NCBI GenBank assembly: GCA_963733175.1
Contig: CAVTCL010000003.1
Coordinates: 11,640-75,639 of the forward strand
Length of the DNA stretch: 64,000 bases
DNA from: an uncultured Actinomycetota bacterium
Lineage (GTDB): Bacteria; Actinomycetota; CALGFH01
Reading direction: 5' to 3'
How positions within the stretch are numbered: the stretch's first letter is position 1; every line of letters begins with the position of its first letter. Position numbers and translations under genes: made by a program. Under the pieces are notes generated by a model that worked only from the letters and a program-made list of their open reading frames with translations, did no database searches and was not told the DNA's origin. Below are positions 8,101-32,299 of this stretch, one piece after another.

Positions 8101-8101
8101 G

Positions 8102-9013: not shown

Positions 9014-9340
9014 CAGGGAGGGGAGGCGAGATGGCCGAGGACCCGCCGCTGCCGCGGACCGAGCGGCCCGACGCGCCCCTGTACCTGGCCAGCTACCTGC
9101 GGCGGCGGGCCAGGGCGGCCGCTCCCGAGCCCGGCGGCGAGCCGGCACCGGCCGAGGCCGGGGCCGACGCGGCCACGCCGCTGTACCTGCGCCGGTTCCG
9201 GGAGCGGCGGGCCGACCCGGACGCCCCCGACGCCCCCCCGCCGGTCTGGAACGGCGAGCCGCTGGAGGTGACCAGGGCCTGGGCCGAGATCACCCGGACC
9301 AAGGAGATCGTCCCCGAGACCGGGCGCCGGCGCCTTCCGG

Positions 9341-11185: not shown

Positions 11186-11213
11186 CCCGGGCATCGACGG
11201 AAAGGACACGGCC

Positions 11214-13032: not shown

Positions 13033-13044
13033 GGAGGCCGTTGC

Positions 13045-14295
13045 ATGCTGACCGCCGAGCAGAACGCCGAGCTGACCCGGGTCGGGCCGGGGACGCCCAT
13101 GGGCGAGCTCCTGCGCCGCTACTGGTACCCGGTGGCCTTCACCCGCCAGCTCGAGGAGTTCCCGGTGAAGCGGGTGCGGCTGCTCGGCGAGGACTGGGCC
13201 CTGTACAAGACCCCGGACGGGTCCTACGGGGTGGTCGAGGAGCACTGCCCCCACCGGCGGGCGTCGCTGGCCTACGGGGTGGTCGAGCCCGAGGGCCTGC
13301 GCTGCGGCTACCACGGCTGGCTGTTCGGCCGCGACGGGACCTGCCTGGACCAGCCGGCCGAGCTCGACAAGACCTCGTTCAAGGACCGGGTCCGGGCCCG
13401 GGCGGGCCGGGCCCAGGAGCTGGGCGGCATGGTCTGGGTGTACGTGGGCCCGGAGCCGGCGCCGCTGCTGCCCCGCTACGACGTGTACGTGATGGACGGG
13501 GTGCGCGACTTCGGCCACGCCCTGCTGCCCTGCAACTGGCTGCAGATCATGGAGAACGCCGTCGACCCCCACCATGTCGAGTGGCTGCACGGCCGCTACT
13601 TCGAGTTCCTCGGCAACCGGATGGGGTTCGAGGCCCCCAAGTCGTTCCAGCGCCGCCACGTCAAGGTCGCCTTCGACGAGTTCGACCACGGCATCATCAA
13701 GCGCCGGCTGCTGGAGGGCCACAGCGAGGACGACGACGACTGGGCCATCGGCCACCCGATGGTGTTCCCCTACTGCATGCGGGTCGGGGGCGCCGGCATC
13801 GAGCAGATGCAGATCCGGGTGCCGGTCGACGACACCACCACCTGGTTCGTGCTCTACACGGTCCACGCCCCCGAGGGGGCACCTGCCCCCGACCAGGCCG
13901 CCATCCCCGACTACGAGCTGCCCTGGCGCGACGAGCAGGGCAACCACATCGTCGACTACGTCGAGGGCCAGGACATCATGGCCTGGGTCACCCAGGGCCC
14001 GATCACCGACCGGACGGTCGAGCACCTCGGCAAGTCGGACGTGGGCATCGCCATGCTCCGCAAGCAGTTCAAGCAGCAGCTGGCCGCGGTGGCGGCCGGC
14101 CGCGACCCGATCGCCGTGGTCCGCGACCCGGCGGCCAACGCCCGCATCGACCTGCCGTGCGAGAAGAACAAGTTCGGCGCCGGAGCCGACTTCGCCCTCC
14201 AGTGGATGAACCTCGGCTTCACCCGGTACTCGCCGCAGCTCCAGGACCTGCTGCGCCTCCACACCGAGGCGGCCGAGGTCCGGGCCGATGCCTGA
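13045..14295 (+). CDS. Rieske non-heme iron aromatic-ring-hydroxylating oxygenase, alpha subunit
   Basis: CPHRRASLAYG...CGYHGW Rieske motif plus a mononuclear-iron domain (..NAVDPHHVEWLHG..); 416 aa; aaggagg Shine-Dalgarno; no beta subunit or reductase nearby. Confidence 0.85.
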   Translation: MLTAEQNAELTRVGPGTPMGELLRRYWYPVAFTRQLEEFPVKRVRLLGEDWALYKTPDGSYGVVEEHCPHRRASLAYGVVEPEGLRCGYHGWLFGRDGTCLDQPAELDKTSFKDRVRARAGRAQELGGMVWVYVGPEPAPLLPRYDVYVMDGVRDFGHALLPCNWLQIMENAVDPHHVEWLHGRYFEFLGNRMGFEAPKSFQRRHVKVAFDEFDHGIIKRRLLEGHSEDDDDWAIGHPMVFPYCMRVGGAGIEQMQIRVPVDDTTTWFVLYTVHAPEGAPAPDQAAIPDYELPWRDEQGNHIVDYVEGQDIMAWVTQGPITDRTVEHLGKSDVGIAMLRKQFKQQLAAVAAGRDPIAVVRDPAANARIDLPCEKNKFGAGADFALQWMNLGFTRYSPQLQDLLRLHTEAAEVRADA

Positions 14296-16920: not shown

Positions 16921-17012
16921 CGGCCCATGTTCCCATGCGCGACCGGCGGGCGGTCGCGGCGGGCGCCGCACCCGTTGACTGGTGACGGGGCGAGGGGCAG
17001 ATTACGGCCGAC

Positions 17013-18421
17013 ATGGCGGTCATCGATCCAGGTGCCCTGCGCGCGCTCCGGCGTCGGTTCGGAGGGCGGGTCCTGGGTCCCGACGACCCCGGGTATCGCG
17101 ACGCGCGCCGCGTCTGGAACGCGATGGTGGACCGGCGTCCGGCGGTCATCGCCAGGTGCGGCAGCCGGGAGGACGTGGTCGCGGCCATCTCCTTCGCCCG
17201 CCAGACCGGGCTCGAGGTGGCGGTGCGCAGCGGCGGTCACAGCGTCTCGGGCCACTCCTCCACCGACGGCGGCATCGTCATCGACTTGACCGAGATGCGC
17301 ACCGTCACGGTGGACCCCGAGGCGCGCGTCGCCAGGGTGGACGGGGGTGCGCTCCTGTGCCACCTGGACGCCGGGACCCAGCGGTTCGGGCTGGCCACCA
17401 CCGGGGGATGGTGTCCCACACCGGCGTCGGCGGGCTGACCCTCGGCGGCGGGTACGGCTACCTGTCCCGGCGGTTCGGGCTGGCCTGCGACAACCTGCTC
17501 GCCGCCGAGGTGGTGCTGGCCGACGGGACGGTCACCGTGGCCAGCGACTCCAGCGAGCCCGACCTGTTCTGGGGGCTCCGGGGCGGCGGGGGCAACTTCG
17601 GGGTCGTCACCCGCTTCGAGTTCCGCCTGCACCCCGTCGGGCCGGCCGTCTTCTCCGCCGACCTCACCTTCGCGGCCGACGACGGCCCGGCGGTCCTGCG
17701 CGCCTTCCGCGACCTCGCCCTCGGGCGGCAGGACATCGTCAGCGGCGCCTACGCCGGCGCGGTGTCCCGGTCCTGGGCCGGGTTCGACGACCTGGTCGGG
17801 CGGCCGATCGTGAGCGTGGACTTCACGGTGACGGGGCCGGACCCCGGCGAGGGCGCGGCCGTCGTGGCGTCGCTGCGGAGCGTCGCCACCCCGCTCGCCG
17901 AGACCGTCGAGTCCCTGTCCTATGTCGAGCTCCAGTCCGCCGCCGGGGCGTCCTGGCGGCCGGGCACGTCGCGCTGCTACTGGAAGTCCTCGGTCTTCTC
18001 CGAGCTCCCCGACGGGCTGCTGGACGCCTTCGTCGAGCGTGGGGTGGCGTCGGCCGCCGTCTCCGAGGGCTGCGGCCTGGAGCTGGTCGCCGCCTTCGGT
18101 GGCGCCGTCTCGGAGGTGGGAGAGGACGACACCGCGTTCAGCCACCGCCACGCCCAGGTCGACTTCCTCGCCCTCGGGCGGTGGGACGACCCGGCCGACG
18201 ACGAGCTCCACATCGAGCTGTGCCGCCGGAACTGGGCGGCGCTGGCCCGGTTCTCCGACGCCGGCGTGTACGTCAACAACCTGGGGCAGGAGGACCGGGT
18301 GCGCGAGGCCTACGGCGAGGCGAAGTACCGGCGGCTGGTCGCCCTCAAGGACCGGTTCGACCCGGACAACCTGTTCCACCTCAACGCGAACATCCGGCCG
18401 TCCGCGGGCGCTCGCGGCTAG
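17013..18421 (+). CDS. FAD-binding oxidoreductase (VAO/PCMH / BBE-like), copy 1, apparent frameshift
   Basis: ..VIARCGSREDVVAAISFARQTGLEVAVRSGGHSVSGHS.. then a frame change at the G5 run (about 17405) to ..VSHTGVGGLTLGGGYGYLSRRFGLACDNLLAAEVVLADG...GGGGNFGVVTRFEF...; C-terminal BBE-like domain. Confidence 0.75.
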
Positions 18422-18924
18422 CGTCGGCGGTCGCGCCGGACCACCAGCTCCAGCTCGACCGCGAACCCGAGCGGGAGGGCGGCCACCCCGACCGCCGAGC
18501 GGGCATGGCGGCCGCGGTCGCCGAACAGCTCCACCAGCAGGGCCGAGGCGCCGTCGACCACGGCCGGGACGGCGGTGAAGCCGGGGGTGCAGGCGACGAA
18601 GCCGACCAGCTTGACGACCTGGCCCACCTGGTCCAGGTCGCCGAGGGCGTCGCGGGTCTGGGCGAGCAGGTTCAGCGCGCAGTCGCGGGCGGCCTTCTGG
18701 CCCTGCTCGACGGTGAGGTCGGCCCCGAGGCGGCCGACCCAGCCGTCGGCGCCCTGGCCGGACAGGAACAGCAGGTCGCCGGCTGACACCCAGCCCTCGT
18801 ACAGCCCGGCCCTTGGCCGCAGCGCCGGCAGCTCCAGGCCCAGCTCGGCCAGCCGCCGTTCCGGGCCGGGTCCCTCCGGTGGCCGGCCGCGGGGTGGGAC
18901 GGCGAACACCCGGCCCGGGCTCAT
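18418..18924 (-). CDS. RidA/YjgF/TdcF-family protein (enamine/imine deaminase); candidate 2-aminomuconate deaminase
   Basis: 168 aa ..LVGFVACTPGFTAVPAVVDGASALLVELFGDRGRHARSAVGVAALPLG..; the RidA fold. Confidence 0.7.
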   Translation of the reverse strand: MSPGRVFAVPPRGRPPEGPGPERRLAELGLELPALRPRAGLYEGWVSAGDLLFLSGQGADGWVGRLGADLTVEQGQKAARDCALNLLAQTRDALGDLDQVGQVVKLVGFVACTPGFTAVPAVVDGASALLVELFGDRGRHARSAVGVAALPLGFAVELELVVRRDRRR

Positions 18925-19526
18925 CGGACGCTGAACACCCGGCCGGGCCCGGGCGGCGGCGGGTCGGGGTCGAGCCCGAGACGGGCGAGCAGGGCGGCGA
19001 TCGAGCCGGCGGGGTCGCGGACCTCGAACAGCAGCGTCTGCATCCCGACGGCGGCGGCACCTTCCAGGTTGACCGCCAGGTCGTCCACGAACAGGCAGCG
19101 CCCGGGGGCCTCGCCGATCTCGGCCGCGGCCAGCCGGAACGCCTCCGGGTCGGGCTTGAGCACCCCCAGGCGGGCCGCCTCCACCACCTGGTCGAACCCG
19201 CCCAGCTCCGGGAACCGCCCCGGCCAGTCAGGCCCGAACCAGTGCGCCATGTCGTTGGTGAACGCCACCAGCCGGACCCGCCCGGCCAGCGCATCCACCG
19301 CCGCCCGGACCTCGCCCCGCACCCGCGAGCAGGCCCGCCACAGCGCCCCCACGTCCAGGTCGGGCCGCCGCTCGCCCAGCCGGGCCCAGTAGTCCCGCTC
19401 GGCCAGCTCCCCCCGCTCCACGGCCGCGTACTCGGCCTCCCCCCGGAACGGCCCCCCGGGAAACCCCGCCACCGCCACCGACTCGAACAGGGTCGGGATC
19501 ACCACCCCACCCATGTCCAGCAGCAC
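18921..19526 (-). CDS. HAD-superfamily hydrolase, paralog 2
   Basis: VLLDMGGVVIPTLFE...CLFVDDLAVNLEGAAAVGMQTLLF; similar to the HAD genes at 686 and 30605; the start (GTG vs ATG 19514) is uncertain. Confidence 0.65.
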   Translation of the reverse strand: MLLDMGGVVIPTLFESVAVAGFPGGPFRGEAEYAAVERGELAERDYWARLGERRPDLDVGALWRACSRVRGEVRAAVDALAGRVRLVAFTNDMAHWFGPDWPGRFPELGGFDQVVEAARLGVLKPDPEAFRLAAAEIGEAPGRCLFVDDLAVNLEGAAAVGMQTLLFEVRDPAGSIAALLARLGLDPDPPPPGPGRVFSVR

Positions 19527-19924
19527 CGCCGCCGGCGCCCGCCCCGCCCTCCCGGCCCGGCCCCCGGCCCTGGCCCCGGCGGCCCGCCACAGCGCCCGCC
19601 GCCGCCGCACCGCCCAGTCGTCCAGGTCCACCGGAGCCCCAGCCCGCGCGGCCCCGGGGTCGACCGCGCAGAGGTCACCCGAGGGTGCACCTGGGGGCCA
19701 TGCACCCAGAAGGTGCACCCACCGCTCCTCGGATTGCCGCCGCTACCCCCCCAAGGGGGAGCGTAGACGACCCCGGATCTGGGTCCGGGTGCTCGTCCAC
19801 AGCCCCCTGGGGTCCTGGCGACCCCGGACCCGGGTCCCGTTGCCTGTCCACGGGCCCATCGGGTCCCCGGGTTCTCCTGGGCCCTCCGGGTCCCTCGGCA
19901 GCGACCATCGATCCGGTCCGCGGC

Positions 19925-21754
19925 CTACCCGAGCACCGTGACGACGCCTTCGCTGCCGTCGACCCGGATGCGCTGGCCGGTCTTGATGGTGGCGACCGCC
20001 TTGCCGGTGCCGATCACCGCCGGGAGGCCGTACTCGCGGCAGATGATGGCGGTGTGGCTCATGATCCCGCCGACGTCGGAGACGGTGGCGGCGATCCGGG
20101 AGAACACCGGCGACCACGACGGCGAGGTGGCCGGGCAGACCAGGATCTCGCCCTCCTGGACCTGGTCCAGCTCGGTGACGTGGCGCACGACCCGGGCCGG
20201 GCCCTCGACCACCCCGGGCGACCCGGCCACCCCGCGCAGGGTCGCCTGGCCGTCGCCGTCGCCCTCGCCTTCCCGGAGCCATTCGCCGACCGTGTCGGTG
20301 GTGATGCCCCAGAGCATGACCGTGAACGGCTCGCTCACCTCGGCCGGCGGCGGCCCGAGGGCGGGGACGGCGTCGGCCGCCGACAGCGCCGCGTGGATGC
20401 GGCGCCGCTCGGTCACGATCGGCCGCCAGTAGTCGGCCCCCCGGGCCCTGCTCCCCACCGACCAGGCGGCCACGGCGTCGTACAGCGCCTCCATGACCTC
20501 GTAGCGGCGCAGGAAGAACATGTCCTCGGGGTCGTCGAAGATGCCCATGGCCTGGAGGGCCCGCGACAGCTCCTTGGACTTGCCCCAGAAGGTGGCCCAC
20601 AGCCAGTGCTCGATGTAGAGCACGTGCTCCTCGATGTAGACGAACACCTTGCGGGCCAGGGCGACCATCTCGTCGAAGGCGGCCTGGTCGCCTTCGGCCA
20701 GCAGCGCCCGGTACTCGGCGGTGATCCGGTCGCGCTCGGCCAGGACCTGCTCGGTCGGGCGGTCGAGGGCCTCGCCGGCCCGCAGCCGGCGCACGTACTC
20801 CTTGACCGAGGCCAGCGGGATGCCGGGGTCGTCCAGCCAGGTGTCGTAGTAGTGGTAGCCGCCCGGGTGCCCGGGGTCGGTGTTGAACAGGAACCACGGG
20901 TCCGAGGTCCGCTCCCAGTCGGCCACCCACTCGCGGCCGCCCTCGCTCCCCTTGAGCTCCTCGAACAGCGAGCCCGGGTCGCCGGCGCCAAGGACGGCCT
21001 CGCCGACCCCGAGGCGCTCGGCCTCCTTGGCCAGGCGCTTGAGCTCGTCGTCGGGCCGGTACAGGTCGACGTGGAGGCCGCCCACCATGCGCGAGATCGA
21101 CTGGTCGGTGATGTCACCGAACGCCTGCTTGGCGAACATGAAGAAGGTCAGGTAGGCGGCGTAGCCGACGTTGAGCAGCTCGAAGTGGTACTGGTAGGTC
21201 TTGTACATGGTCAGGACGAGGTTGGAGAAGTCCTCGATCATCCGGTACCCGGACGAGTAGCCGACGTGGTCGAAGACCACCGACTCGTCCTCCAGCTCGG
21301 GCAGGGGCTCGAACCGGATCGCCTTGATCTCCTCCAGGTGGGCGGTGACCTTGTCCTTCCACTCGGCGTAGATCTGGTCCCAGTGCTCGTAGTAGTGGCC
21401 GCCGCGGCGGCCGAACAGCTCGGCCCGCGCGGGCACGCTCTCGGGCGGCGCCGGGACCGGGGTCACGTACAGGTAGCCGTTGAGGATCCGCTGGTCCACC
21501 CCGAAGGCGGGCGGCATGGCGAAGATGCGGGTGTTGAACGCCCCCAGGGCCTGCCACCAGCACTCGCACTGGATCTCGTCGTAGGGGTGGAGCACGCCCG
21601 GGTGGTGCAGCCGGTCCTGGAACCAGAACCGCTGCTCGTCCAGGTCGCGGCGGTCGTCGCCGAACAGGTGGTACCAGTTGTACATCTGCTCCCAGCCCTC
21701 GGCCCCCTCGGGCGTCGGCACCTCGAACGGGCTGGGGAAGCGGTCCTGGCTCAA
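19925..21754 (-). CDS. PEP-utilising enzyme with mobile (swivel His) domain (PpsA-like), copy 2 (intact)
   Basis: 609 aa (M/L)SQDRFPSPFEVPTPEGAEGWEQMYNWYHLF...GVAGSPGVVEGPARVV...EILVCPATSPSWSPVFSRIAATVSDVGGIMSHTAIICREYGLPAVIGTG; TTG start overlaps the BMC vertex gene stop (TTGA). Confidence 0.85.
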   Translation of the reverse strand: MSQDRFPSPFEVPTPEGAEGWEQMYNWYHLFGDDRRDLDEQRFWFQDRLHHPGVLHPYDEIQCECWWQALGAFNTRIFAMPPAFGVDQRILNGYLYVTPVPAPPESVPARAELFGRRGGHYYEHWDQIYAEWKDKVTAHLEEIKAIRFEPLPELEDESVVFDHVGYSSGYRMIEDFSNLVLTMYKTYQYHFELLNVGYAAYLTFFMFAKQAFGDITDQSISRMVGGLHVDLYRPDDELKRLAKEAERLGVGEAVLGAGDPGSLFEELKGSEGGREWVADWERTSDPWFLFNTDPGHPGGYHYYDTWLDDPGIPLASVKEYVRRLRAGEALDRPTEQVLAERDRITAEYRALLAEGDQAAFDEMVALARKVFVYIEEHVLYIEHWLWATFWGKSKELSRALQAMGIFDDPEDMFFLRRYEVMEALYDAVAAWSVGSRARGADYWRPIVTERRRIHAALSAADAVPALGPPPAEVSEPFTVMLWGITTDTVGEWLREGEGDGDGQATLRGVAGSPGVVEGPARVVRHVTELDQVQEGEILVCPATSPSWSPVFSRIAATVSDVGGIMSHTAIICREYGLPAVIGTGKAVATIKTGQRIRVDGSEGVVTVLG

Positions 21755-22059
21755 GGGCTGGTCCTTTCCGCTCGGCGTTCCGCTCGGCGGGGCTTGGGGG
21801 AGGTGGGCGGGGTCGGGAGCCGGTCGGCGCCCGCGACCAGGGCGACCACGGCCGCGTCGACGGCCGCCCCGCCGGTGGCGGTCTGGGCGGCGTCGTCGGT
21901 GACGACCAGCACGGTGTTGCCGGCGGCCACGTCGACCAGGTCGACGGCCACGTGCGCGGCCGAGGTGGACAGGTCCCGGACCAGCACCATGCGGCGGCCG
22001 TCCAGGTCGGGCACCTGGCGCTCGGACCAGACCCGGCCGAGGACCTCGGCCAGCAGCAT
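21751..22059 (-). CDS. bacterial microcompartment vertex protein (BMC-P, EutN/CcmL/PduN family)
   Basis: 102 aa MLLAEVLGRVWSERQVPDLDGRRMVLVRDL...GNTVLVVTDDAAQTATGGAAVDAAVVALV matches the PF03319 pattern (V.G.vw..r...l.g..l.lv...G..vl...g.a....vDaavv); ATG overlaps the BMC-H stop (ATGA). Confidence 0.8.
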   Translation of the reverse strand: MLLAEVLGRVWSERQVPDLDGRRMVLVRDLSTSAAHVAVDLVDVAAGNTVLVVTDDAAQTATGGAAVDAAVVALVAGADRLPTPPTSPKPRRAERRAERTSP

Positions 22060-22397
22060 CAGGCGCTCCCGCGGGACTTCTTGCCGGACTCGATCGCCCG
22101 GCCCGAGAGCTGCTCGGCGGTGCCGTTGGCCAGCAGCGCCGAGGCGACCTCGTGCGGCTTGGGGTAGATCTGGGCCGAGCGCAGGTCGCCGTAGCGGCGG
22201 ACCGCCTCGGCGCCGGCGTCCATGGCCTGGCGGACGGCGGCGATGCTGCCCTGGATGGCGGCGGCGAAGTAGCCGCTGGACACCCGCTCGACGGCGACGC
22301 ACTCCACGTCGGCGGTCTTCATCATGGCTTCGATCCCGGCCGTGAGCCCGACCACCCCGCGGGTCTCGAACAGGCCGATGGCACGCTCCGACGGCAT
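22059..22397 (-). CDS. bacterial microcompartment shell protein, BMC-H (PF00936), copy 1, with a C-terminal tail
   Basis: MPSERAIGLFETRGVVGLTAGIEAMMKTADVECVAVERVSSGYFAAAIQGSIAAVRQAMDAGAEAV then about 35 aa of tail; aggagg Shine-Dalgarno. Confidence 0.85.
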   Translation of the reverse strand: MPSERAIGLFETRGVVGLTAGIEAMMKTADVECVAVERVSSGYFAAAIQGSIAAVRQAMDAGAEAVRRYGDLRSAQIYPKPHEVASALLANGTAEQLSGRAIESGKKSRGSA

Positions 22398-22406
22398 CTG
22401 GGCCTC

Positions 22407-22700
22407 CTATCCGTCCAGCAGCCGCGGGTTGCCGGCGATGGCCGCGACCGGCCGGCTCGGGCTGGCGAAGATGATCGACTTGACCTTGCCCCGGGAGACG
22501 GCCCTGGCCGTCTCCTCCCCGATCTCCACCGCCTCCTCGACGGTGGCCAGGTCGCCCCCGAGGGCGACCGCGACCAGTCCCCCGCCCAGGCGCATCACCC
22601 CGTTCACCCGCACCTCGGTCGCCTTCACCATCGCGTCGATGGCGTCGAAGATGGGGACGAACCCTTCGGCCTCGATGAACCCGGCCGCCTCGTTGGCCAT
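22407..22700 (-). CDS. bacterial microcompartment shell protein, BMC-H, copy 2
   Basis: MANEAAGFIEAEGFVPIFDAIDAMVKATEVRVNGVMRLGGGLVAVALGGDLATVEEAVEIGEETARAV; ggagg Shine-Dalgarno. Confidence 0.85.
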   Translation of the reverse strand: MANEAAGFIEAEGFVPIFDAIDAMVKATEVRVNGVMRLGGGLVAVALGGDLATVEEAVEIGEETARAVSRGKVKSIIFASPSRPVAAIAGNPRLLDG

Positions 22701-22723
22701 GCCGCTCCTCCCTCTCGTGCGTG

Positions 22724-23549
22724 TCAGGTGCCGTCCAGCCAGGTGACCACGGCCGCCCCGGTCCCCCAGACCGGGCCGTACTCGAGCACCCGGGCCTGGC
22801 CGTCGCAGGCGCCGCTGCCGGCCAGGAAGGCCAGCGCCCGGAACTGGCTGTCCGCCTGCGCCTCGCGGGCGTACTGCTCGCGCAGGGCCAGCGACCTCGT
22901 CGGTCCGGCCGGCGGCGAGCAGGTCGAGCACGCGGCGGTTCCAGGCGTCGTGGCCGGCGTCCTCGAAGCGGTCCTCGGCCGGCTCGATCCAGCGCTGGAT
23001 GAGGCCCGAGGACAGGCCCGAGATGGCCACGAAGGCGACCCGCCGGCCGAGCTCGCCGGCCGCCCGGGCCGCCGCCTCGGCGATCCGGCCGAGGTCGCCG
23101 GCGGCGGCGTACAGGTTGCAGGAGACCAGCGCGATCGGGCGCGAGCGGTCGGGGTCGACCAGCCGGCCGGCGACCACCGTGCCGGTGTCGACCGGGAAGC
23201 CGTCGTAGCGGGTGCGCCTGGCCTGGAAGCCCATGTCCTCGGCCTGGCAGGCCCAGGCCTCGGCCAGCTCCACGTCGACCCGGAGGTCGTAGTCGAGGGT
23301 GCCGTAGTCGTAGGCGTACCAGTTCTCGTCGACGTGGTGGCCGCGGGGGTTGGGGTCGACCTGGAACTGGTGGCCGAGCACGGTGAACCACTGGGTCGAG
23401 AGGACCACGAACGCGTCCGGGCCGGCCGCCAGGAGGTCCCGGCCGGCCTGCCGGGCCGCGTCGGCCAGCAGCTTCCAGCTCGGCGCCGGCTCGGCCGCCA
23501 GCAGGTGCGGCATCCCCGGGACGAGGGCCGCCCCGACGACCGCCTTCAT
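22724..23549 (-). CDS. LigB-type (class III) extradiol ring-cleavage dioxygenase subunit, copy 2 (AmnA/AmnB-like), apparent frameshift near the 3' end
   Basis: MKAVVGAALVPGMPHLLAAEPAPS...VVLSTQWF...HQFQVDPNPRGHHVDENWYAYDYGTLDYDLRVDVELAEAWA...; the C-terminal ..LALREQYAREAQADSQFRALAFLAGSGACDGQARVLEYGPVWGTGAAVVTWLDGT* is found in another frame from about 22895. Confidence 0.75.
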
Positions 23550-23562
23550 CGGGCACCCCGCT

Positions 23563-24528
23563 CACGAACGGGCTCCGGTCATCGGGGCGGGGCCGGCCGG
23601 CGTCGTCGGGGCCGGGGGCCCAGCCCGGCGGGGCGGGATGGGCCAGGGCCGGGCTGGCCGGGTCCCATTCGATCACCGCGTTGCCGGTGCCGATGATGGT
23701 CCCGTAGCCGAGCACGTCCCCCGGGATCTCCGGCCAGCCGAGGGCCGACAGCAGCCACGACAGGCTGCCCGCCTTGACCTCGGCCGCGGTGGCCTCGATG
23801 TGGCGGGGCAGGAACGCCCGCAGCTCCCGGGTCCTGCCCGCCCGGACCAGGGTGAGGAGATCCATGTCCCAGCGGTACTGGTGGTCGTCGTAGGGGTGCT
23901 CGGCGGCCATGTCCTCCGGCACCTCCGGCTCCCGGTCCCAGTGGAGGTGGGAAAGCGAGTTCGACCCGGCCAGCACGGCCCGCCGCCCGGTCTGCTCGAC
24001 GGCCCGGCGGGTGGCCGCGCCGAGGCGTTCCATCTGCTCCAGGTCGGCGTCGGAGTAGAAGTAGGGGTTGTTGTTGGCCGACAGCGACACCACCGGGACG
24101 TCCCAGTCCGGGTTGAGCAGGTGCAGGGCGCCGATGGTGGCGTAGTCGACCCGCACCCCCGGGTTGGTCATCTTGCGGGTGACCAGGCCGGCGTCGGCGG
24201 CGCAGTCGGCGATCGCCTCGGCCAGCTCGACGTCGGTGCGGAAGTCGTACCGGTAGCGCAGCAGGTGCGGGAAGATCGGCTCGACCGACAGGCCGCGGGG
24301 GTTGGGCACGCAGTTCACGTGGTGGCCGACCATGGTGATCCAGTGGGGGGCGTGGACCACGATCACGTCGGGCCGGTGCCGCTCCCGCAGCCGCCGCCTG
24401 GCCTCCTGATAGGCCCAGCGCAGCAGCTCCCAGCCACCCCGGGAGCGGGGCTCGTTCTGGGGCGGGTTCTCGGCGTAGATCAGATGCGGCGGGTGCGGCG
24501 CCAGGTACCCGGCCACGATCCCCGGCAT
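23563..24528 (-). CDS. LigB-type (class III) extradiol ring-cleavage dioxygenase subunit, copy 1 (AmnB/AmnA-like); 3' end uncertain
   Basis: MPGIVAGYLAPHPPHLIYAENPPQNEP...VVHAPHWITMVGHHVNCVPNPRGLSVEPIFPHLLRYRYDF...GYGTIIGTGNAVIEWD; no stop in this frame, while the +1 frame has a TGA at 23563-23565, 14 nt before the next ATG, so an indel near 23570-23660 is likely. Confidence 0.7.
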
Positions 24529-24679
24529 GCGGTCGTCGCCGTCCGGGCCCGGTCCGGCCGCCGGGACGGCCGCCGGAGGCTGGGCCGTCCGCGGCGCCCG
24601 CCGCCGGTCCCCCACGGTGACGTGGAAGACACGCGACATGCCCGGACGCTAGCCACCGGCTCGCCCGTTGCCTACGCTT

Positions 24680-24700
24680 GTGTCCGGTATCACCGGACAC
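24680..24700. promoter_or_regulatory. perfect inverted repeat GTGTCCGGT-atc-ACCGGACAC in the divergent IclR / dioxygenase-BMC promoter region; candidate operator
   Basis: 9-bp arms are exact reverse complements with a 3-bp spacer, 18 nt upstream of the IclR ATG (24718) and about 150 nt upstream of the dioxygenase ATG (24528). Confidence 0.55.
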
Positions 24701-24717
24701 CTGGCGGTAGGGCTGGG

Positions 24718-25479
24718 ATGACGAACAACGTCGCCCGGGTGGGCTCGGTCACCAAGGCGGCGCGGGTGCTGCAGGCGTTCACGCCGTTGGTGACCTTGCT
24801 CAGTGTGCGGCAGGTGGCCGAGCGGACCGGGATCCCGCGGAGCACCGCGCATGCGCTGTGCGTGACCCTGTGCGATGCCGGGCTGCTGGAGGAGGCGGCG
24901 GGCCGGGGATACCGGCTGGGGCCGGCCCTGGTCGGGCTCGGCGGGCAGGTGATCGAGCGGACCGGGCTGGTCGACGCCGCCGAGGGGGTGCTGGACCGCC
25001 TGGGTCCCGGGGACGGGCTCGAGATCCACCTGGGCCAGCTCGTCGGGGGGTGGGTCGTGTACCTGGACCGGGCCAGCGGGCCGGTGCGGGCGCCGATGCA
25101 CAACCGGGTCGGGCTGCGGGCCCCGGCCCACCTGACCGGGTGCGGCAAGGCCGCCCTGGCGCTGCTGCCGCCGGCCGAGGTGGCGGCCCGGGTCGAGGCG
25201 GTGTGCGCGGCCGAGTCGCGCCAGCTCCCCGACCTGCGCGCCCTGGCCGGGGAGCTGGCCGCCGCCCGGCGGGCCGGGTTCGTGGTCAGCGACACCTTCC
25301 AGGCCGGCCGCACCTCGGTGGCCGCCCCCGTCCCCGACCCGGCCGGCCAGCCGGCCGGCGGCATCTCGGTCGCCGGCCCGACCCCGCTGCTGGCCGGCGC
25401 CCGCCTCGACCGGATCCGGGACCAGGTGGTGGCGGCGGCCAGCCTGATCGGCCAGCGCCTGGCCGGCCCCGGCCGCTGA
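24718..25479 (+). CDS. IclR-family transcriptional regulator, divergent from the BMC/dioxygenase operon
   Basis: MTNNVARVGSVTKAARVLQAF...LSVRQVAERTGIPRSTAHALCVTLCDAGLL (helix-turn-helix) plus an effector domain; 253 aa. Confidence 0.8.
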   Translation: MTNNVARVGSVTKAARVLQAFTPLVTLLSVRQVAERTGIPRSTAHALCVTLCDAGLLEEAAGRGYRLGPALVGLGGQVIERTGLVDAAEGVLDRLGPGDGLEIHLGQLVGGWVVYLDRASGPVRAPMHNRVGLRAPAHLTGCGKAALALLPPAEVAARVEAVCAAESRQLPDLRALAGELAAARRAGFVVSDTFQAGRTSVAAPVPDPAGQPAGGISVAGPTPLLAGARLDRIRDQVVAAASLIGQRLAGPGR

Positions 25480-25503
25480 GCGGCCAGGGCATCCGCACGT
25501 CCG

Positions 25504-26656
25504 TCAGGCCCGGTCCGGGGACGGGGACCTGACGGCCCCGGCGATCTGGCCGGCGATCCGCTCGGCGTCCCGGCCGACCCCGCCGAGCAGCGAGGAGGTG
25601 AACCCGCTCAGGAACCACAGGCCGATGAAGTACAGGCCGGGCTGGGACGCGACCACGCCGCGGTCGTGCCGCGGGAGGCCGTCCTGGTCGAAGACCGGCA
25701 GGTCGACCCAGCCGAAGTCGGGCCGCGACCCGGTGCACCAGATGAGGTTGGCCACCTCCATGACGCGGCCGTCCTCCAGCACCGGGAGGCCGTCGCGCAC
25801 CCCGACCGTCCGCGGCACCCGCTCGACCCCGGCGGCGGCCAGCTCCTTGGGCCGCACCCGCTCCAGCGGCGCGGGGGTGATGCAGGGCCTTGGGCCGGAC
25901 CTTGCGGCCGACGGGGGTGTCGACGGTCAGCACGCGCGAGGCGAACCACCAGAACGGCGGGGTGAGCAGCCGGTCCCAGCGGCCGCCGGCGCGCACCGGG
26001 ATGTGGCCGGTGTCGGGGCCCGACAGCCAGGTCGGGTGGGCGCGCGAGACCTCCCAGGCGATCTCGGCCCCGGAGTTGCCGGCCCCCACCACCAGCACCC
26101 CGCCGGGCGCGCAGCTGGGAGGGGTTCCGGTAGCGGCTGGTGTCGAGCTGGACGATGCCCGGGTCGAGCTCGGCGGCGAAGGCGGGCACCCGGGGGCGCT
26201 GGTAGGCGCCGCTGGCCACCACCACCTGGTCGGCCTCCCAGCGGCGGTCGCCGGCCGCCACCAGGAAGCGGCCGCGCTGCCCAGGCGAGCCGGTCGACGC
26301 GGACGCCGTGGCGCACCGGGAGCTCGAACCGGGCGGCGTAGGCCTCCAGGTAGTCGGCGACCTCGTCCCTGGTCGGGGAACGACCAGGCCGGCGCGGGGA
26401 AGGGCAGGCCGGGCAGCCCCGAGTAGCGCGCCGGGGTGAACAGGCGCAGCGAGTCCCAGCGCCGCCGCCAGGCGTCCCCGGTCCGCTGGTCGGCGTCGAG
26501 GATCACGAACGGCCGGTCCCGCCTGGCCAGGTGGTAGCCGACGGCCAGGCCGGCCTGCCCGCCGCCGACGATCACGGTCTCGATCCGCTCCCCCGCCCGG
26601 CGGGGCCCTGGCCGGGCCGCAGGCACGTCCTGCTGGTTGCCCATGGCCGCCTCCAT
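25504..26656 (-). CDS. FAD/NAD(P)-binding flavin-containing monooxygenase (CzcO/TrkA-C-like), multiple apparent frameshifts
   Basis: ..ETVIVGGGQAGLAVGYHLARRDRPFVILDADQRTGDAWRRRWDSLRLFTPARYSGLPGLPFP.. / ..FLVAAGDRRWEADQVVVASGAYQRPRVPAFAAELDPGIVQLDTSRYRNPSQL.. / GVLVVGAGNSGAEIAWEVSR.. / ..ELAAAGVERVPRTVGVRDGLPVLEDGRVMEVANLIWCTGSRPDFGWVDLPVFDQDGLPRHDRGVV..PGLYFIGL are spread over three or more frames. Confidence 0.7.
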
Positions 26657-27540
26657 CAGGACGCTCCCGAGCGCGGCCCGCAGCGCCTGCAGGAACGCCT
26701 CGGGCTGCTCGACGGCGGGGTCGTCGGCGGCCCGCTCGACCACGTGCAGGGGCCAGCCGTAGCGGGCGCTGGCCGCCTCGGCGAGGCCGAGCCGCACCTG
26801 CCGGTCGTGGCGCCCCCAGATCAGGGTGGTGGGGGCGGCGATCCGGGCCAGCTCGGCCGGCGGGATCGCCGGCACCCCGAGCTGCGGCATCAGGTGCTTG
26901 AGGGCCTTGTTCACCCCGGGCGCGCGGGCCCGGTCGAGCGCGTACGCCTCCACCAGCTCGCCGCGCTCCCCCAGCCGCTCGCGCAGCCCGTCGAGGTCGA
27001 AGACGCACTGGCGGAACAGCCGCTCCTGGGTGCCCTCGGTCGGGCGGGCGGCGTAGGCGACCATGGCCAGGGCGTAGCGCGGCGTCGGCCAGAACCGGCC
27101 GAGGCCATAGGTGTCGACCAGCACCAGCCGGCCGAGCCGGTCCGGGTGGTCGATGGCGAAGCGGGCGGCGATCGCGCCGCCGAGCAGGTGGCCCGACCAG
27201 CGCCGGCGGCGACGGGCAGGTGCGCTCGACCAGCTCGCCCAGCCAGGCGAGTCACCCCCGCGGTGTCCAGCGGCGCGCCGGCGAGTCCCGAGGCGCCGTG
27301 GCCGGGCAGGTCGGGGGCGATCACCCGGTGGGTCCGGACCAGCTCGGGGATCACCTGCAGCCAGCAGGCGGCGAACTCCCCGGGGCCGTGCAGCAGCACG
27401 ACCGGCGGGCCGTCGCCGCCCTCCAGCACCGCGGTCGGGTGGCCGGCCAGGGTCAGCCGTCGCTCGCGCACGGGAGCGCCGGCGAGCAGGCGTTCGCGGA
27501 TGCCCTCCCCGGCCCGCTGGCGGGCCTGCAACCTCGGCAT
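26656..27540 (-). CDS. alpha/beta-fold hydrolase, apparent frameshifts
   Basis: ..PVVLLHGPGEFAACWLQVIPELVRTHRVIAPDLPGHGASG.. then ..GHLLGGAIAARFAIDHPDRLGRLVLVD... then ..IWGRHDRQV..; GxSxG-like HLLGG nucleophile elbow; two indels at about 27215-27270; the stop is implied by a TGA/ATG junction at 26654-26658. Confidence 0.65.
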
Positions 27541-27679
27541 CGGAACTGGTCATGGCGGACTCCTCCTGGTCGTTCGGTGACCCTGCCCGGCCAGGATGGG
27601 ACCGGACGGGCGGGCCACGCATCGGCCGAACCCGCCAGCTCGACCGGACGGCCGGCATGGGTGATTGCCGCCAGGACGC

Positions 27680-29370: not shown

Positions 29371-29850
29371 TCAGCGGCCCGGGTCGACCGGGGTCCGCTG
29401 GTCGGGGACGGCGGTCGGGTCGAGGACCCAGTGCTGGCTGACGGTGGCCCGGTAGAGGCGGTACAGGGAGGGCGCCAGGACGTCGGCGGGGGTCTTGCTG
29501 CGGGCCCCGGCGCGCAGGCCGGCCTCGCCCGGGTAGACCTGGAGGCCGCGCTCCAGGTCGGGGCCGGACAGCTCGGCGGCCGTGGCCGCCATGTAGACGG
29601 CCTGGCCGGTGCCGACGGGGGCCTGGGAGTCGAACACGACGATGCTGAGCTCGGGTCGGGCGGCCAGGTTCCGCGAGTGGGTCGCCTCCGGGGAGGAGAT
29701 CCAGTAGAGGTCGCGGTAGTCGTCGGCGGCGAAGAACACCGGCGACACCCAGGGGTTGCCGGCGGCGTCGGCGGTGCCGAGGGTCATGTAGTGGTTGGCG
29801 TCGAGGATGGCCCTGGCGACGGCGTCCAGGTCGGGCTGCTGCTGGGTCAC
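29371..29850 (-). CDS. pyridoxamine 5'-phosphate oxidase (PPOX)-family protein, possibly F420/FMN-binding
   Basis: 159 aa ..AILDANHYMTLGTADAAGNPWVSPVFFAADD.. split-barrel motif; GTG start with ggagg Shine-Dalgarno; overlaps the esterase stop (GTGA). Confidence 0.65.
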   Translation of the reverse strand: MTQQQPDLDAVARAILDANHYMTLGTADAAGNPWVSPVFFAADDYRDLYWISSPEATHSRNLAARPELSIVVFDSQAPVGTGQAVYMAATAAELSGPDLERGLQVYPGEAGLRAGARSKTPADVLAPSLYRLYRATVSQHWVLDPTAVPDQRTPVDPGR

Positions 29851-30608
29851 GTGAACCTCCCGAGTCGGCGGGTGACCTCGGCCCAGGCGGGCGAGGCGGG
29901 GTCGATCACGGCCATGTGGTCGACGCCGGCCAGCTCGACCAGCTCGACGGGGTCGCCGGCGGCGGCCGCGGCCGCGGCGTGGGCCCGGCTCTGCTCCACC
30001 GGCACCCGGTCGTCGGCGTCGCCGTGGACCAGGAGCTGGGCGACGCCCAGGGGCAGCCGGGCCAGGGGGGAGGCGAGCCGGTAGCGCTCGGGGTCCTGGT
30101 CAGGGGTGGCGCCGAGGAACTCGGCGACGGCGCCCTCCCCGATGCCGCCGGCCGCTCCGGCGTGCAGGTCGCACACGCCGGCCAGGCTCACCACCAGGCG
30201 CGGGGCGACCAGCGGCCCCGCCCCGGGGGCGCCGGCCGGCAGCCCCGCCCGGGCGGCCGACCACAGCGCGAGGTGGCCGCCGGCCGAGTGCCCGGCCACG
30301 ACCAGCCGGTCCAGGTCCAGCGGTTCCCGCCCGGCCAGCCGGGCCAGATGGTCCAGGCCGGCGGCCACGTCCTCGCAGGTGCCCGGCCAGCCGCCGCCGG
30401 GCTGGCCGACCCGCCGGTACTCCAGGTTCCAGGCCGCGAACCCCCGGCCGGCCAGGTCGGCGGCGAGCGGCCGCATCAGCTCCAGGGTCCGCTGGGCCCG
30501 CCAGAACCCGCCGTGCAGCAGCACCACCACCGGCCAGGGCCCGTCGCCGGCGGGCCGCCACAGCTCCCCGAACCGGTCCGCCCCCGGACCGTAGGCCTCG
30601 ACCGTCAC
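29847..30608 (-). CDS. alpha/beta hydrolase (esterase/lipase, BD-FAE type)
   Basis: ..VVVLLHGGFWRAQ...VVAGHSAGGHLALW...HGDADDRVPV; oxyanion HGG, GHSAG nucleophile and Asp/His; GTG start overlaps the HAD stop (GTGA). Confidence 0.75.
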   Translation of the reverse strand: MTVEAYGPGADRFGELWRPAGDGPWPVVVLLHGGFWRAQRTLELMRPLAADLAGRGFAAWNLEYRRVGQPGGGWPGTCEDVAAGLDHLARLAGREPLDLDRLVVAGHSAGGHLALWSAARAGLPAGAPGAGPLVAPRLVVSLAGVCDLHAGAAGGIGEGAVAEFLGATPDQDPERYRLASPLARLPLGVAQLLVHGDADDRVPVEQSRAHAAAAAAAGDPVELVELAGVDHMAVIDPASPAWAEVTRRLGRFT

Positions 30609-31258
30609 AGCCCGAGCCGGCGCCGGACCCGGGCGAAGGACCCGGCCGGGTCGGCGATGTCGAAGTGGACCCCGGACATGCCGGCGGCGGTGGCGCCGGC
30701 CACGTTGGCCGGGTCGTCGTCGACGAACACGATCGCCGGCGGGTCCAGGCCCATCGCCGCCGCGGCCTGGTCGTAGGCCCGAGGGTCGGGCTTGGCCACG
30801 CCGGTCTCGCTCTCGTCCAGGAGCACGTCGAAGGAGCTGAGGAAGTCGCTGCGCTCGACCACCTCCCGGCTCAGGAACGCCACCAGCTTGCTGGTGAGCA
30901 GGCCGGTGCGCCGCCCGGCGGCGCGGGCGTCGGCGACCAGGGCACGACCCTCCGGCCGCACGGCCAGCCCGGCCGGCGTCTCGAACATCGCCCTGGTCAC
31001 CTCCGGCCAGCTCACGGGCCGGCCGAGCAGCGCGCTGATCTCGGCCGCCCGCCGGTCGAAGTAGCCGGCGGAGGCCAGCTCGCCGGCCCGGACCGAGCGC
31101 CACAGCGGGTCGGTGGCCGGGTCGAGCGGGCCCCGCCAGGGCAGGGTCCCTGGCGGCCAGCCGTTGCGGGCCTCGAACTCCTCCAGCAGCTCCCACGGGG
31201 TGGGGAGCAGGACCCCGCCCACGTCGAGCAGGACCCCCTTGCCGTCGGCACCCGCCAT
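30605..31258 (-). CDS. HAD-superfamily hydrolase, paralog 3
   Basis: MAGADGKGVLLDVGGVLLPTPWE...IVFVDDDPANVAGATAAGMSGVHF; 217 aa. Confidence 0.7.
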   Translation of the reverse strand: MAGADGKGVLLDVGGVLLPTPWELLEEFEARNGWPPGTLPWRGPLDPATDPLWRSVRAGELASAGYFDRRAAEISALLGRPVSWPEVTRAMFETPAGLAVRPEGRALVADARAAGRRTGLLTSKLVAFLSREVVERSDFLSSFDVLLDESETGVAKPDPRAYDQAAAAMGLDPPAIVFVDDDPANVAGATAAGMSGVHFDIADPAGSFARVRRRLGL

Positions 31259-32299
31259 TCAGCCGGGCCCGGCCTGGCCGGGTGCGCCGGGTCGGCCCAG
31301 GTAGGCGAGCATCCGGTCCATGGCCGAGGTCCCAGGGGGGACAACGGCCTGGCGGGGCCGGCGGCTCCACACCGTCTCCGGCCGGGCCTGGAGCAGCCAC
31401 AGCTCGCGCCCGCCCGCCGCTCCGGGGGCCGCGCCCGCCGCCGTCGTTCCCGGTGCGGCCGGCGGCCCGACCGCCCACTCGACGTCCTGGGGCACGCCCA
31501 GCGCCTGCTCGACGCGCTTGCCCAGCCTGGCCAGCTCGGCCACCTCGGCGTCGTCCAGGCACGGCCGCGCCCGGTCGGCGGCCGGCACCTCGACCCGGGC
31601 GACCCGCCCGGCGGCCGGGTCGAACCGGTAGGCGAACGCCTTCTCGCCGACCGAGCGGGAGCGCAGCTCCAGGGTGACCTTGTCGACGGCGAACCGGTCG
31701 GGGGTGACCTCCCCCTCGACCACCGCGGTGCCGAGCCCGTAGGCGGCCTCGATGGTGACCTGGGAGCGGTCGCCGGTCAGCGGGTCGAGGGTGAGCAGCA
31801 CCCCGGCGGCCTCGGCCGGGACCATGGCCTGGACGACCACGCCCATGGCGACCTCGTCGTCACCGATGCCCAGCCGGGCCCGGTAGGCGACCGCGCGGTC
31901 GGTGAACAGGCTCGCCCAGCAGCGGGCGACGTTGGCCAGCACGGCATCGGCGCCCCGGACCCACAGGTAGGTGTCCTGCTGGCCGGCGAAGGAGGCCTCG
32001 GCGGTGTCCTCGGCGGTGGCGCTGGAGCGGACCGCCACCGGCGGGTCCCGGTCCCCGGCCCGGCCGAGGCGCCGGTAGGCGGCGACGAGCTCGGCGGCCA
32101 GGCGGTCGCCGACCGTCGCCGGCCGGCCGCCGGCGGCCAGCGCCTCCCGGTAGGCGGCGGTGGTGACGGCGAACCCGGGCGGCACCCGGTGGCCCTGGCG
32201 GACCAGGTGGCCGAGCCCGACCGCCTTCCCCCCGACCAGCGGCGCGGCGTCGGCGCCGCACGCCTCCAGCGGGAGGACATGGCTGGCCGGGTCGCGCAC
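31259..32299 (-). CDS. PEP-utilising enzyme N-terminal ATP-binding domain protein (PPDK_N; PpsB-like), copy 2 (intact)
   Basis: 346 aa ..GGKAVGLGHLVRQGHRVPPGFAVTTAAY...VAVRSSATAEDTAEASFAGQQDTYLWV...MGVVVQAMVPAEAAGVLLTLDP...LDDAEVAELARLGKRVEQALGVPQDVEWAV...LWLLQARPETVWS; GTG start with ggagg Shine-Dalgarno. Confidence 0.85.
   Translation of the reverse strand: MRDPASHVLPLEACGADAAPLVGGKAVGLGHLVRQGHRVPPGFAVTTAAYREALAAGGRPATVGDRLAAELVAAYRRLGRAGDRDPPVAVRSSATAEDTAEASFAGQQDTYLWVRGADAVLANVARCWASLFTDRAVAYRARLGIGDDEVAMGVVVQAMVPAEAAGVLLTLDPLTGDRSQVTIEAAYGLGTAVVEGEVTPDRFAVDKVTLELRSRSVGEKAFAYRFDPAAGRVARVEVPAADRARPCLDDAEVAELARLGKRVEQALGVPQDVEWAVGPPAAPGTTAAGAAPGAAGGRELWLLQARPETVWSRRPRQAVVPPGTSAMDRMLAYLGRPGAPGQAGPG

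Follow-up and report, generated by a model that had tools for sequence, protein, structure and literature searches.

Does an enzyme whose gene begins on the stop codon of a microcompartment vertex gene act inside that compartment, and which reaction would it carry out? The question is raised by a stretch of 64,000 nucleotides from an uncultured Actinomycetota bacterium (contig CAVTCL010000003.1, positions 11,640 to 75,639; hereafter the window, with a G+C content of 74.5%), in which the gene for a 609-residue PpsA-like protein, PpsA-2, is coupled to genes for bacterial microcompartment (BMC) shell proteins. An earlier note on this DNA had put PpsA-2 forward as possible compartment cargo or a shell-associated enzyme. 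The explanation that we consider best, and probable, is that PpsA-2 belongs to a two-component dikinase in a conserved BMC module, that this kinase is untagged and cytosolic, and that a neighboring, tagged HAD phosphatase unmasks the aryl phosphate that the kinase produces; we infer the cytosolic location and the unmasking step.

PpsA-2 is predicted to be a subunit of a two-component dikinase

The sole Pfam match of PpsA-2 is the phosphohistidine swivel domain PF00391 at residues 533-603 (E=3e-23); the same Pfam search found neither an ATP-grasp domain (PF01326) nor a phosphoenolpyruvate (PEP)/pyruvate-binding domain (PF02896) in the protein. Over its full length PpsA-2 matches the NCBIfam family PRK08296.1-5 (773.6 bits, against a cutoff of 578), which is named only 'hypothetical protein', and sequence matches in the PDB are confined to the last ~100 residues. 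An AlphaFold2 (AF2) model built on 41 sequences (pLDDT 90.1, pTM 0.91) gave as its best Foldseek matches the Listeria rifampin phosphotransferase (RPH) structures 5FBU, 5HV1 and 5FBT, with E=8e-18 to 1e-15 over 605-672 columns, TMq of 0.57-0.60 and 17-19% identity, while PEP synthase, PPDK and Enzyme I matched the swivel domain of the model only. A faint precomputed match to PF27448 ('Rph_4th') is present in PpsA-2 homologues. The protein thus divides into an RPH-like substrate-binding region (~1-495) and the swivel domain.

The swivel domain contains the motif S559-D-V-G-G-I-M-S-H567, with His567 as the catalytic residue, which fits the T/SxxGGxxxH definition for this kinase family (PMC12167813); it has Met at position -2 and Ser at -1 of the motif histidine, as do CreH and PpsA (PMC12167813). 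The published structural match of HpeH, the large subunit of Rhodococcus HpeHI, is likewise RPH, and the HpeHI relatives CreHI and phenylphosphate synthase PpsAB phosphorylate phenols with conversion of ATP to AMP and Pi (PMC12167813). Architecture, fold, motif and NCBIfam family are the grounds on which we assign PpsA-2 to the HpeH/CreH/PpsA type. As judged from sequence and model, PpsA-2 is the subunit that binds the substrate and carries the phosphohistidine in a two-component, RPH-like dikinase for small molecules; by analogy the substrate is most likely phenolic.

HpeHI (Rhodococcus rhodochrous GD02), CreHI (Corynebacterium glutamicum), PpsAB (Thauera aromatica) and AcvAB (Sphingobium) show the same split into an ATP-grasp PPDK_N protein and an RPH-like/swivel subunit of ~600 residues, share the SxxGGxxMSH motif, and are encoded together with a phosphatase in aromatic catabolic clusters. 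Unlike these systems, PpsA-2 falls in a separate clade that is almost confined to BMC operons (non-BMC family members are 40-49% identical to it), and its gene has no adjoining ATP-grasp partner in the window. RPH (5FBS/5FBT/5FBU, 5HV1) is the best structural match over the whole of PpsA-2, and the swivel-histidine mechanism is common to both; RPH, however, includes its ATP-grasp domain in one and the same chain and acts on an antibiotic, whereas the PpsA-2 system has a separate ATP-grasp gene and a catabolic context. The PpsA-2 clade, linked to BMCs, is a new branch of a known kind of enzyme and occurs in a known type of BMC.

The source annotations name proteins of this kind 'pyruvate, water dikinase', and their swivel domains resemble that of PEP synthase with E values of ~1e-18 to 1e-22; a genuine PEP synthase might supply PEP or handle the pyruvate released by meta-cleavage. 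PpsA-2 resembles PEP synthase and PPDK, however, only in the ~100 residues of the swivel (~495-608), it lacks both the PEP/pyruvate-binding and the ATP-grasp domain, and its other ~500 residues have a fold like that of the rifampin-binding domain in RPH. The domain architecture by itself refutes the identity suggested by the name 'PpsA-like' in the earlier note, and we give a PEP synthase next to no probability. The remark in the same note that such phosphotransferases are not known BMC cargo agrees with the searchable literature, in which no paper links a dikinase to a BMC.

The vertex gene and the PpsA-like gene share a conserved junction

The gene for the vertex protein BMC-P ends ...AGC CCT TGA and the 609-aa open reading frame (ORF) opens TTG AGC CAG. 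As had been proposed, the stop codon of the EutN/CcmL-type gene and the start codon of PpsA-2 overlap in the sequence TTGA (21754-21751, minus strand), and a Shine-Dalgarno-like GGAAAGGA lies ~7 nt upstream of the start. The same junction, with the same element ahead of it, is found in nine contigs that are ~93-96% identical to the window in DNA and 87-96% in protein; it reads ATGA in four, GTGA in four and TTGA in one, the window being a further case of TTGA. Because all of these variants retain a legal start codon, and because homologues of other phyla can be aligned with the N-terminus, MSQDRFPSPFE, from residue 1-6 onward, the comparison identifies TTG as the true start of PpsA-2.

An overlap per se is ordinary for this DNA. 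The HAD and RidA genes overlap by ATGA (18921-18924), the second BMC-H and BMC-P genes by 1 nt (22059), and a further 4-nt overlap lies at 29847-29850; it is the conserved synteny with shell genes that exceeds chance. The PpsA-like ORF and its junction with BMC-P are intact despite frameshifts elsewhere in the window. We rejected the basic, poorly conserved C-terminal tail of BMC-P as a docking site for the kinase, as this tail varies or is deleted among close, 95%-identical relatives.

The dikinase belongs to a conserved module of microcompartment loci

ARO microcompartment loci encode two pfam02900 (LigB) dioxygenase subunits, two BMC-H proteins, one BMC-P protein and an IclR regulator, and are found in Actinobacteria only (Sutter et al., 2021; Doron et al., 2023). 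Codon-position G+C analysis delimits a run of minus-strand genes from ~24640 to 18418 in the window, which reads, after a divergent IclR gene, LigB beta, LigB alpha-like, BMC-H, BMC-H, BMC-P, PpsA-like, HAD and RidA. The two LigB subunits upstream of two BMC-H genes plus a single BMC-P gene, the divergent IclR gene, the actinobacterial host, the N-terminal extension on the dioxygenase beta subunit and a RidA-type deaminase candidate all agree with ARO, and by gene content we identify the locus as an ARO (2-aminophenol/catechol ring-cleavage) microcompartment operon. It differs from type I ARO loci in that PPDK_N, PpsA-like and HAD genes stand where HyuA and HyuB do. We found no gene for aldehyde dehydrogenase (AldDh; PF00171) in the operon or among ~40 other window ORFs screened, which are part of the ORFs of the 64-kb window; L031, L076 and L077, the last two of type I, do encode AldDh (L numbers designate individual loci).

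Homologues were sought with the PpsA-2 protein in one genome per species and in a metagenome collection; 75 loci, from these scans and from first context look-ups with window proteins, were screened, and named homologues were looked up besides. All homologues of at least 68% identity with visible upstream context lie in BMC loci, comprising 12 distinct near-identical contigs and 13 more distant loci. In the close clade (87-96% identity; L001, L002, L006 (=L044), L033-L038, L043, L047 and L057) the PpsA-like gene directly follows BMC-P in 12 of 12 contigs, as it does in the window. Eleven distant loci (68-77% identity) have the order LigB, LigB, BMC-H, BMC-H, BMC-P, PPDK_N, PpsA-like, HAD (+ RidA), with a 4-nt overlap between BMC-P and PPDK_N; the LigB pair is visible where the contig reaches upstream, and shorter contigs (e.g. 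L048 and L055) begin inside the shell genes. These eleven derive from Pseudonocardia asaccharolytica (L013), Euzebya tangerina (L029), Amycolatopsis rhabdoformis (L031, which runs on into a full meta-cleavage pathway), Thermoleophilia-type organisms (L004 and L005) and metagenomes (L039-L042, L048 and L055). In three of them (L004, L005 and L040, of Thermoleophilaceae or Solirubrobacteraceae type) the shell proteins are 60-84% identical to those of the window and the dioxygenases are far more divergent, with ~55% identity for beta and 38-41% for alpha.

Two loci of 75-76% identity, from an Actinoplanes sp. (L030) and an uncultured Actinomycetota (L003), have no LigB genes and show the order BMC-H, BMC-H, PPDK_N, PpsA-like, HAD, tryptophan 2,3-dioxygenase (TDO), BMC-P, BMC-H, PALP, DUF1611, MR_MLE. 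These TDO-type loci occupy 8266-17686 of L030 (Actinoplanes sp. NPDC023801) and 8308-19007 of L003; their PALP proteins have 520-540 residues, and ornithine cyclodeaminase-like genes are also present. The 2021 BMC catalogue contains, in those supplements that can be searched, neither PF03301 nor the word 'tryptophan', and the TDO-type locus may be an undescribed type of BMC.

Homologues of at most 50% identity are never BMC-linked in the screened loci. The closest non-BMC homologue, 65% identical, lies on an Anaerolineaceae contig (L032) with no shell genes adjoining; it and its PPDK_N partner are found there (7790-12987) between genes for a CTP-transferase/PEP-mutase fusion and a glycerophosphotransferase. 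The type I ARO loci of Micromonospora maris (L076) and Streptosporangium (L077) encode HyuA and HyuB and no dikinase, and in the sampled loci HyuAB and the PPDK_N/PpsA-like/HAD trio are mutually exclusive. Gene order thus marks the trio as a conserved core shared by a group of actinobacterial BMC loci of both LigB and TDO types. In the wider family it is PPDK_N, not the PpsA-like gene, that couples to BMC-P; the direct abutment of BMC-P and the PpsA-like gene is therefore, on this comparison, a derived state of one narrow clade, reached after loss of the cognate PPDK_N.

That the PpsA-like gene belongs to the shell operon, as the earlier note had held, is thus upheld by conserved synteny. The same note named absence of the gene order from homologous loci as evidence to the contrary; no such absence was seen, the order being kept in 12 close and 13 distant loci. 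Doron et al. colored non-pathway genes black, called HyuB the sole candidate enzyme of the upper pathway and left the dikinase and HAD genes unmentioned. The dikinase/HAD module is undiscussed in the searchable papers, none of which combined 'bacterial microcompartment', 'dikinase' and 'encapsulation peptide', and PF00391, PF01326 and PF03301 are absent from the supplementary text of Sutter et al. (2021).

The kinase subunits lack a microcompartment-specific appendage

The first 20 or so residues of PpsA-2 had been proposed as a possible amphipathic, encapsulation-peptide-like helix. Residues 1-20 (MSQDRFPSPFEVPTPEGAEG) contain five prolines, form a coil packed on the domain in the AF2 model (block pLDDT 76 and 96), and align position by position with non-BMC homologues of Microbacterium, Ardenticatenia, Ferroglobus and Anaerolineaceae. 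In the alignment, BMC-linked homologues begin and finish in the same columns as the non-BMC ones (L007, L009, L011, L032 and L050), and no N- or C-terminal extension sets BMC-clade PpsA-like proteins apart from these. The suggested helix is thus a proline-rich coil common to homologues outside BMC loci. A C-terminal helix of PPDK_N, following 'RPETVWS', was considered as an encapsulation peptide and rejected, since it also occurs in the non-BMC partners L008, L009, L024 and L032. From sequence and models, neither kinase subunit carries a BMC-specific appendage.

These observations bear on the original proposal that the PpsA-like enzyme is encapsulated or shell-associated, recruited either by its N-terminus or by assembly with BMC-P during translation, and that phosphorylation takes place inside. 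The linkage of the kinase to shell genes is tight and conserved; it is coupled to BMC-P by an NTGA overlap in ten contigs including the window, PPDK_N takes up the 4-nt overlap in the wider clade, and shell genes flank the kinase genes in TDO-type loci. ARO cargo such as AldDh, moreover, also does without a canonical encapsulation peptide. However, the kinase has neither a terminal extension nor an amphipathic helix, the C-terminal helix of PPDK_N is a family-wide rather than a BMC-specific feature, and a dikinase inside the shell would need import of ATP and export of AMP and Pi. In the clade of the window the ATP-grasp partner is encoded outside the operon, and it is the neighbors of the kinase that bear BMC-specific termini. 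The association of the kinase with the BMC therefore stands and its own packaging helix does not, and we consider an encapsulated kinase unlikely.

A short terminal motif is shared by enzymes encoded beside the kinase

The dioxygenase beta subunit starts MSRVFHVTV (RVF at 24633-24625), followed by a variable linker of ~30 residues. A start of the form [SA][RS]VF[HRQ][VLA][PT] is found in 56 of 66 extended beta homologues; it is present in all type I and type II ARO sequences of the Doron data set, including Micromonospora, and not in Comamonas AmnB. Doron et al. proposed this N-terminal extension, which is predicted to form a beta-strand, as an encapsulation determinant.

The HAD proteins of BMC loci form a tight family, with a Pro-rich C-terminal tail that is disordered in the AF2 model and ends, in the window, in GRVFSVR (RVF at 18941-18933). 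The motif R-[VA]-[FW] occurs in this tail in 96 of 101 tailed homologues, sometimes twice. In a control set of 546 distinct C-termini from probable genes in all fetched DNA, R[VA][FW] was found five times in the last 12 residues, and four of the five were HAD proteins. RidA bears an N-terminal RVF on a Pro/Gly linker in the window (MSPGRVFAVPP, 18912-18904), in L001 (MSRGRVFAVPP) and in L037 (MSSRRVFATPL); this extension is absent from RidA in other clades. At the HAD/RidA junction of these three loci (window 18904-18941; L001 ~6240-6300; L037 ~4115-4175), a GRVF-coding sequence of ~25 nt stands twice in tandem, the first copy ending HAD and the second, after ATGA, beginning RidA. This looks like a duplication that moved the terminal motif onto the next gene.

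Like the canonical encapsulation peptides of PduP, PduD, EutC and AldDh, the RVF motif is terminal, stands on poorly conserved linkers and is found on the BMC-locus versions of the enzymes only; unlike those amphipathic helices, which have ~18 residues, it comprises ~6 residues and is not predicted to be helical, and the PpsA-like protein has neither kind of signal. The pattern is suggestive, though not proof, of a shared short terminal peptide whose simplest role would be that of a shell- or core-targeting signal, and the sequence evidence points to the neighboring HAD, not the kinase, as the tagged protein. No conserved RVF-like tag was found on AldDh, HyuB or RidA of type I loci, or on TDO, PALP or DUF1611 of TDO-type loci; the C-terminus 'RPVFHP' of MR_MLE in L030 was rejected as a tag, being not conserved in L003. 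The dikinase/HAD module, its occurrence in TDO-type loci and the shared RVF termini are undescribed in the searchable literature.

In NCBIfam and Foldseek comparisons the HAD protein is similar to E. coli YihX and to the N-terminal phosphatase of sEH. As in YihX, the second Asp is missing from its motif I (LLDMGGV), which would fit substrates with good leaving groups, aryl phosphates among them. The N-terminus of the BMC-locus HAD has a conserved Cys and an Arg-rich stretch, VDPxxWxVRRRRAxRRAA, modeled by AF2 as a confident helix at residues 35-54. Within residues 1-54 (19718-19560), ahead of the catalytic domain, the near-invariant Cys precedes the basic helix (WxVRRRRAxRRAA) by ~20 residues; both features are missing from HAD2, encoded beside a stand-alone PPDK_N gene in the window, and from a third window HAD (701-1345). 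The Cys and basic helix could be a second interaction element.

The ATP-grasp partner and a second dikinase cluster

A PPDK_N-only gene, equivalent to HpeI/PpsB, adjoins the PpsA-like gene in almost all homologous loci. Of two candidates in the window, one lies at 32299-31259 and is syntenic in L033 and L043; the other is at 10147-11080. The best PDB match of the former is 9GOJ, a stand-alone ATP-grasp protein of 387 residues (E=1e-60). We considered whether it might be the relocated orthologue of the BMC-linked PPDK_N proteins; the neighbor-joining tree does not support this, though the gene is syntenic in close relatives. It is nevertheless the most likely present-day partner of PpsA-2. This PPDK_N gene and the plain HAD-IA gene next to it (window 30605-32299, minus strand) recur as a pair in L033 (3-978) and L043 (1-1255), ~2 kb past the IclR gene of the ARO locus, and possibly represent a replacement partner for PpsA-2. 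HAD2, the HAD of this pair, has neither of the terminal extensions of the BMC-locus HAD.

The second PPDK_N candidate belongs to a non-BMC dikinase cluster on the plus strand (7381-14295), whose kinase-oxygenase-phosphatase layout is that of the Cre and Hpe pathways. Its gene content shows that the organism would use kinase-phosphatase brackets outside BMCs as well.

A model for aryl phosphate masking and unmasking

In the mechanism expected from the family, the ATP-grasp partner (PPDK_N) would transfer the beta-phosphate of ATP to His567 of the swivel domain, which would pass it on to a small and most likely phenolic substrate, bound by the RPH-like domain, at a hydroxyl (or amino) group; the dikinase would yield an aryl phosphate, AMP and Pi. 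In the known chemistry of the family the phosphate is placed on a phenolic hydroxyl or on an amino group (aniline activation), and a phosphatase of the cluster, for instance HpeD, removes it later. An untagged kinase outside the shell could convert a reactive compound of the o-aminophenol/catechol type, or its precursor, to a stable anionic aryl phosphate, from which the RVF-tagged HAD would remove the phosphate inside or at the compartment, beside the ring-cleaving dioxygenase. Such a kinase-phosphatase logic has precedents in HpeHI/HpeD, in the Cre pathway and in the second dikinase cluster of the window. A bolder form, for ARO-type and related actinobacterial compartments, in which a toxic, auto-oxidizable o-aminophenol or catechol (or its precursor) is phosphorylated in the cytosol and the phosphorylated pro-substrate itself crosses the shell and is unmasked by the RVF-recruited HAD, so that RVF would be a new, non-helical BMC signal and 'phosphate masking' a new way of gating entry, is possible but doubtful.

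The same enzymes could instead form an ordinary cytosolic bracket of an upper pathway, in which a phenol is phosphorylated, modified and dephosphorylated to yield 2-aminophenol or catechol, and in which the kinase and phosphatase genes lie with shell genes for co-regulation only. HpeHI/HpeCBA/HpeD and CreHI/CreD are precedents for this arrangement, the second, non-BMC dikinase cluster of the window has exactly such a make-up, and the ARO upper pathway is stated by Doron et al. to be unknown. However, the conserved module contains no candidate for a modifying enzyme between kinase and phosphatase, the termini of the BMC-locus HAD resemble the dioxygenase tag and are absent from the non-BMC HAD2, and two locus types that differ in their ring-opening enzymes have both retained the trio. 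We therefore regard a purely cytosolic bracket as rather improbable, and prefer the model of an untagged dikinase with a tagged, unmasking HAD.

Several observations weigh against this preferred model. With regard to the kinase, absence of a tag is not proof of a cytosolic location: ARO AldDh has no tag and is yet thought to be encapsulated, and in TDO-type loci the kinase genes themselves lie between shell genes. The PpsA-like gene of the window and the close clade has no adjoining PPDK_N, and the BMC-linked PPDK_N proteins form a clade of their own in the neighbor-joining tree, outside which the PPDK_N at 31259..32299 falls. No substrate can be assigned to PpsA-2, and the context of L032 hints that the clade is not strictly specific to BMCs or aromatic compounds and that its substrate range is perhaps wider. 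With regard to the HAD, its phosphatase activity is attributed by similarity to YihX and sEH-N only. The RVF similarity spans just 3-6 residues, and type I and TDO-type loci have one RVF-bearing protein only. In L004, L005 and L040 the dioxygenase beta subunit lacks the extension (MPDGVIAGFLAPH) and the HAD tail lacks RVF (GRAVRAARVPRGR and similar); this joint absence speaks in favor of a shared motif, yet it probably reflects a single evolutionary event. Finally, both dioxygenase genes of the window are frameshifted.

Frame breaks and other features of the window

The alpha-like LigB gene has a window-specific insertion of 1 nt near 22893 (22890-22895), and the beta gene one near 23583-23592 (23580-23595), which removes the stop codon; both insertions are absent from five of five relatives compared (~93-94% DNA identity). 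Further frame-split genes lie at ~10913-10920, ~12833-12841, 16982-18421 and 25289-27658. We read the frame breaks of the window as sequencing errors or recent pseudogenes and prefer the former. An apparent LigB-BMC fusion protein (ORF 22407-23549, 380 aa) was rejected as an artefact of the insertion at ~22893, as BMC-H possesses an ATG and a ribosome-binding site of its own, and LigB and BMC-H are separate genes in all relatives; the first BMC-H is 98-100% identical to stand-alone genes in relatives. The ORF at 23579-24700 was likewise rejected as a gene, being an Arg/Pro/Gly-rich wrong frame; the frame of the beta subunit starts at 24639. The coordinates of the features are collected in Table 1.

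The PpsA-like and HAD genes are separated by a spacer of 206 nt, the length of which differs among close relatives. It contains an imperfect 51-nt tandem repeat (19768-19866; 1.9 copies, 79% matches), and neither a terminator nor a promoter consensus was found in it. A promoter and terminator scan of 18300-25000 gave nothing exceeding shuffled expectation.

Table 1. Features of the ARO operon, the stand-alone PPDK_N pair and the second dikinase cluster in the window.
Feature	Positions	Strand	Evidence or remark
RidA/YjgF-family protein, candidate 2-aminomuconate deaminase	18418..18924	-	PF14588, PF01042
HAD-IA phosphatase (sEH-N/YihX-like), putative	18921..19718	-	Pfam, NCBIfam, AF2, Foldseek
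PpsA-2, 609 aa, HpeH/CreH/PpsA-type dikinase subunit (predicted)	19925..21754	-	PF00391, NCBIfam PRK08296, AF2, Foldseek
BMC-P (EutN/CcmL) vertex protein, 102 aa	21751..22059	-	PF03319 E=5e-14
BMC-H, second hexamer type, 112 aa	22059..22397	-	PF00936 E=2e-19
BMC-H, first hexamer type, 97 aa	22407..22700	-	NCBIfam, relatives; own ATG and GAGGGAGGAG ribosome-binding site
ARO dioxygenase alpha-like LigB subunit	22724..23549	-	PF02900; C-terminus continues in another frame
ARO dioxygenase beta (AmnB-like) subunit	23580..24639	-	translation; NCBIfam HpaD_Fe E=8e-32
IclR-type regulator, divergent	24640..25479	+	PF09339, PF01614; start approximate
HAD2, second HAD-IA hydrolase, adjoining stand-alone PPDK_N	30605..31258	-	lacks both terminal extensions
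Stand-alone PPDK_N (ATP-grasp, HpeI-like)	31259..32299	-	PF01326 E=6e-91; best PDB 9GOJ
Catechol-2,3-dioxygenase-like (extradiol) genes	7381-8100, 8087-9013	+	second dikinase cluster
His_Phos_1 phosphatase	9272-10099	+	second dikinase cluster
PPDK_N, frameshifted	10147-11080	+	second dikinase cluster
PpsA paralogue, 45% identity, frameshifted	11220-13023	+	second dikinase cluster
Rieske/LigXa-like oxygenase	13045-14295	+	second dikinase cluster

Implications for ARO microcompartments

ARO has been described as the most unusual BMC known, and its substrate, upper pathway and cargo targeting are stated to be unknown. The kinase/phosphatase module, found in one ARO subtype and in the TDO-type locus, provides a testable lead on the ARO substrate, and HyuAB, another family of ATP-dependent enzymes, is its apparent counterpart in type I loci. 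The six-residue terminal motif, which is present on up to three enzymes of the operon, can be tested as a targeting signal. If true, the aryl phosphate model would explain how a reactive aminophenol arrives safely at the compartment, and it would also supply engineered compartments with a small, portable tag and a principle of gating.

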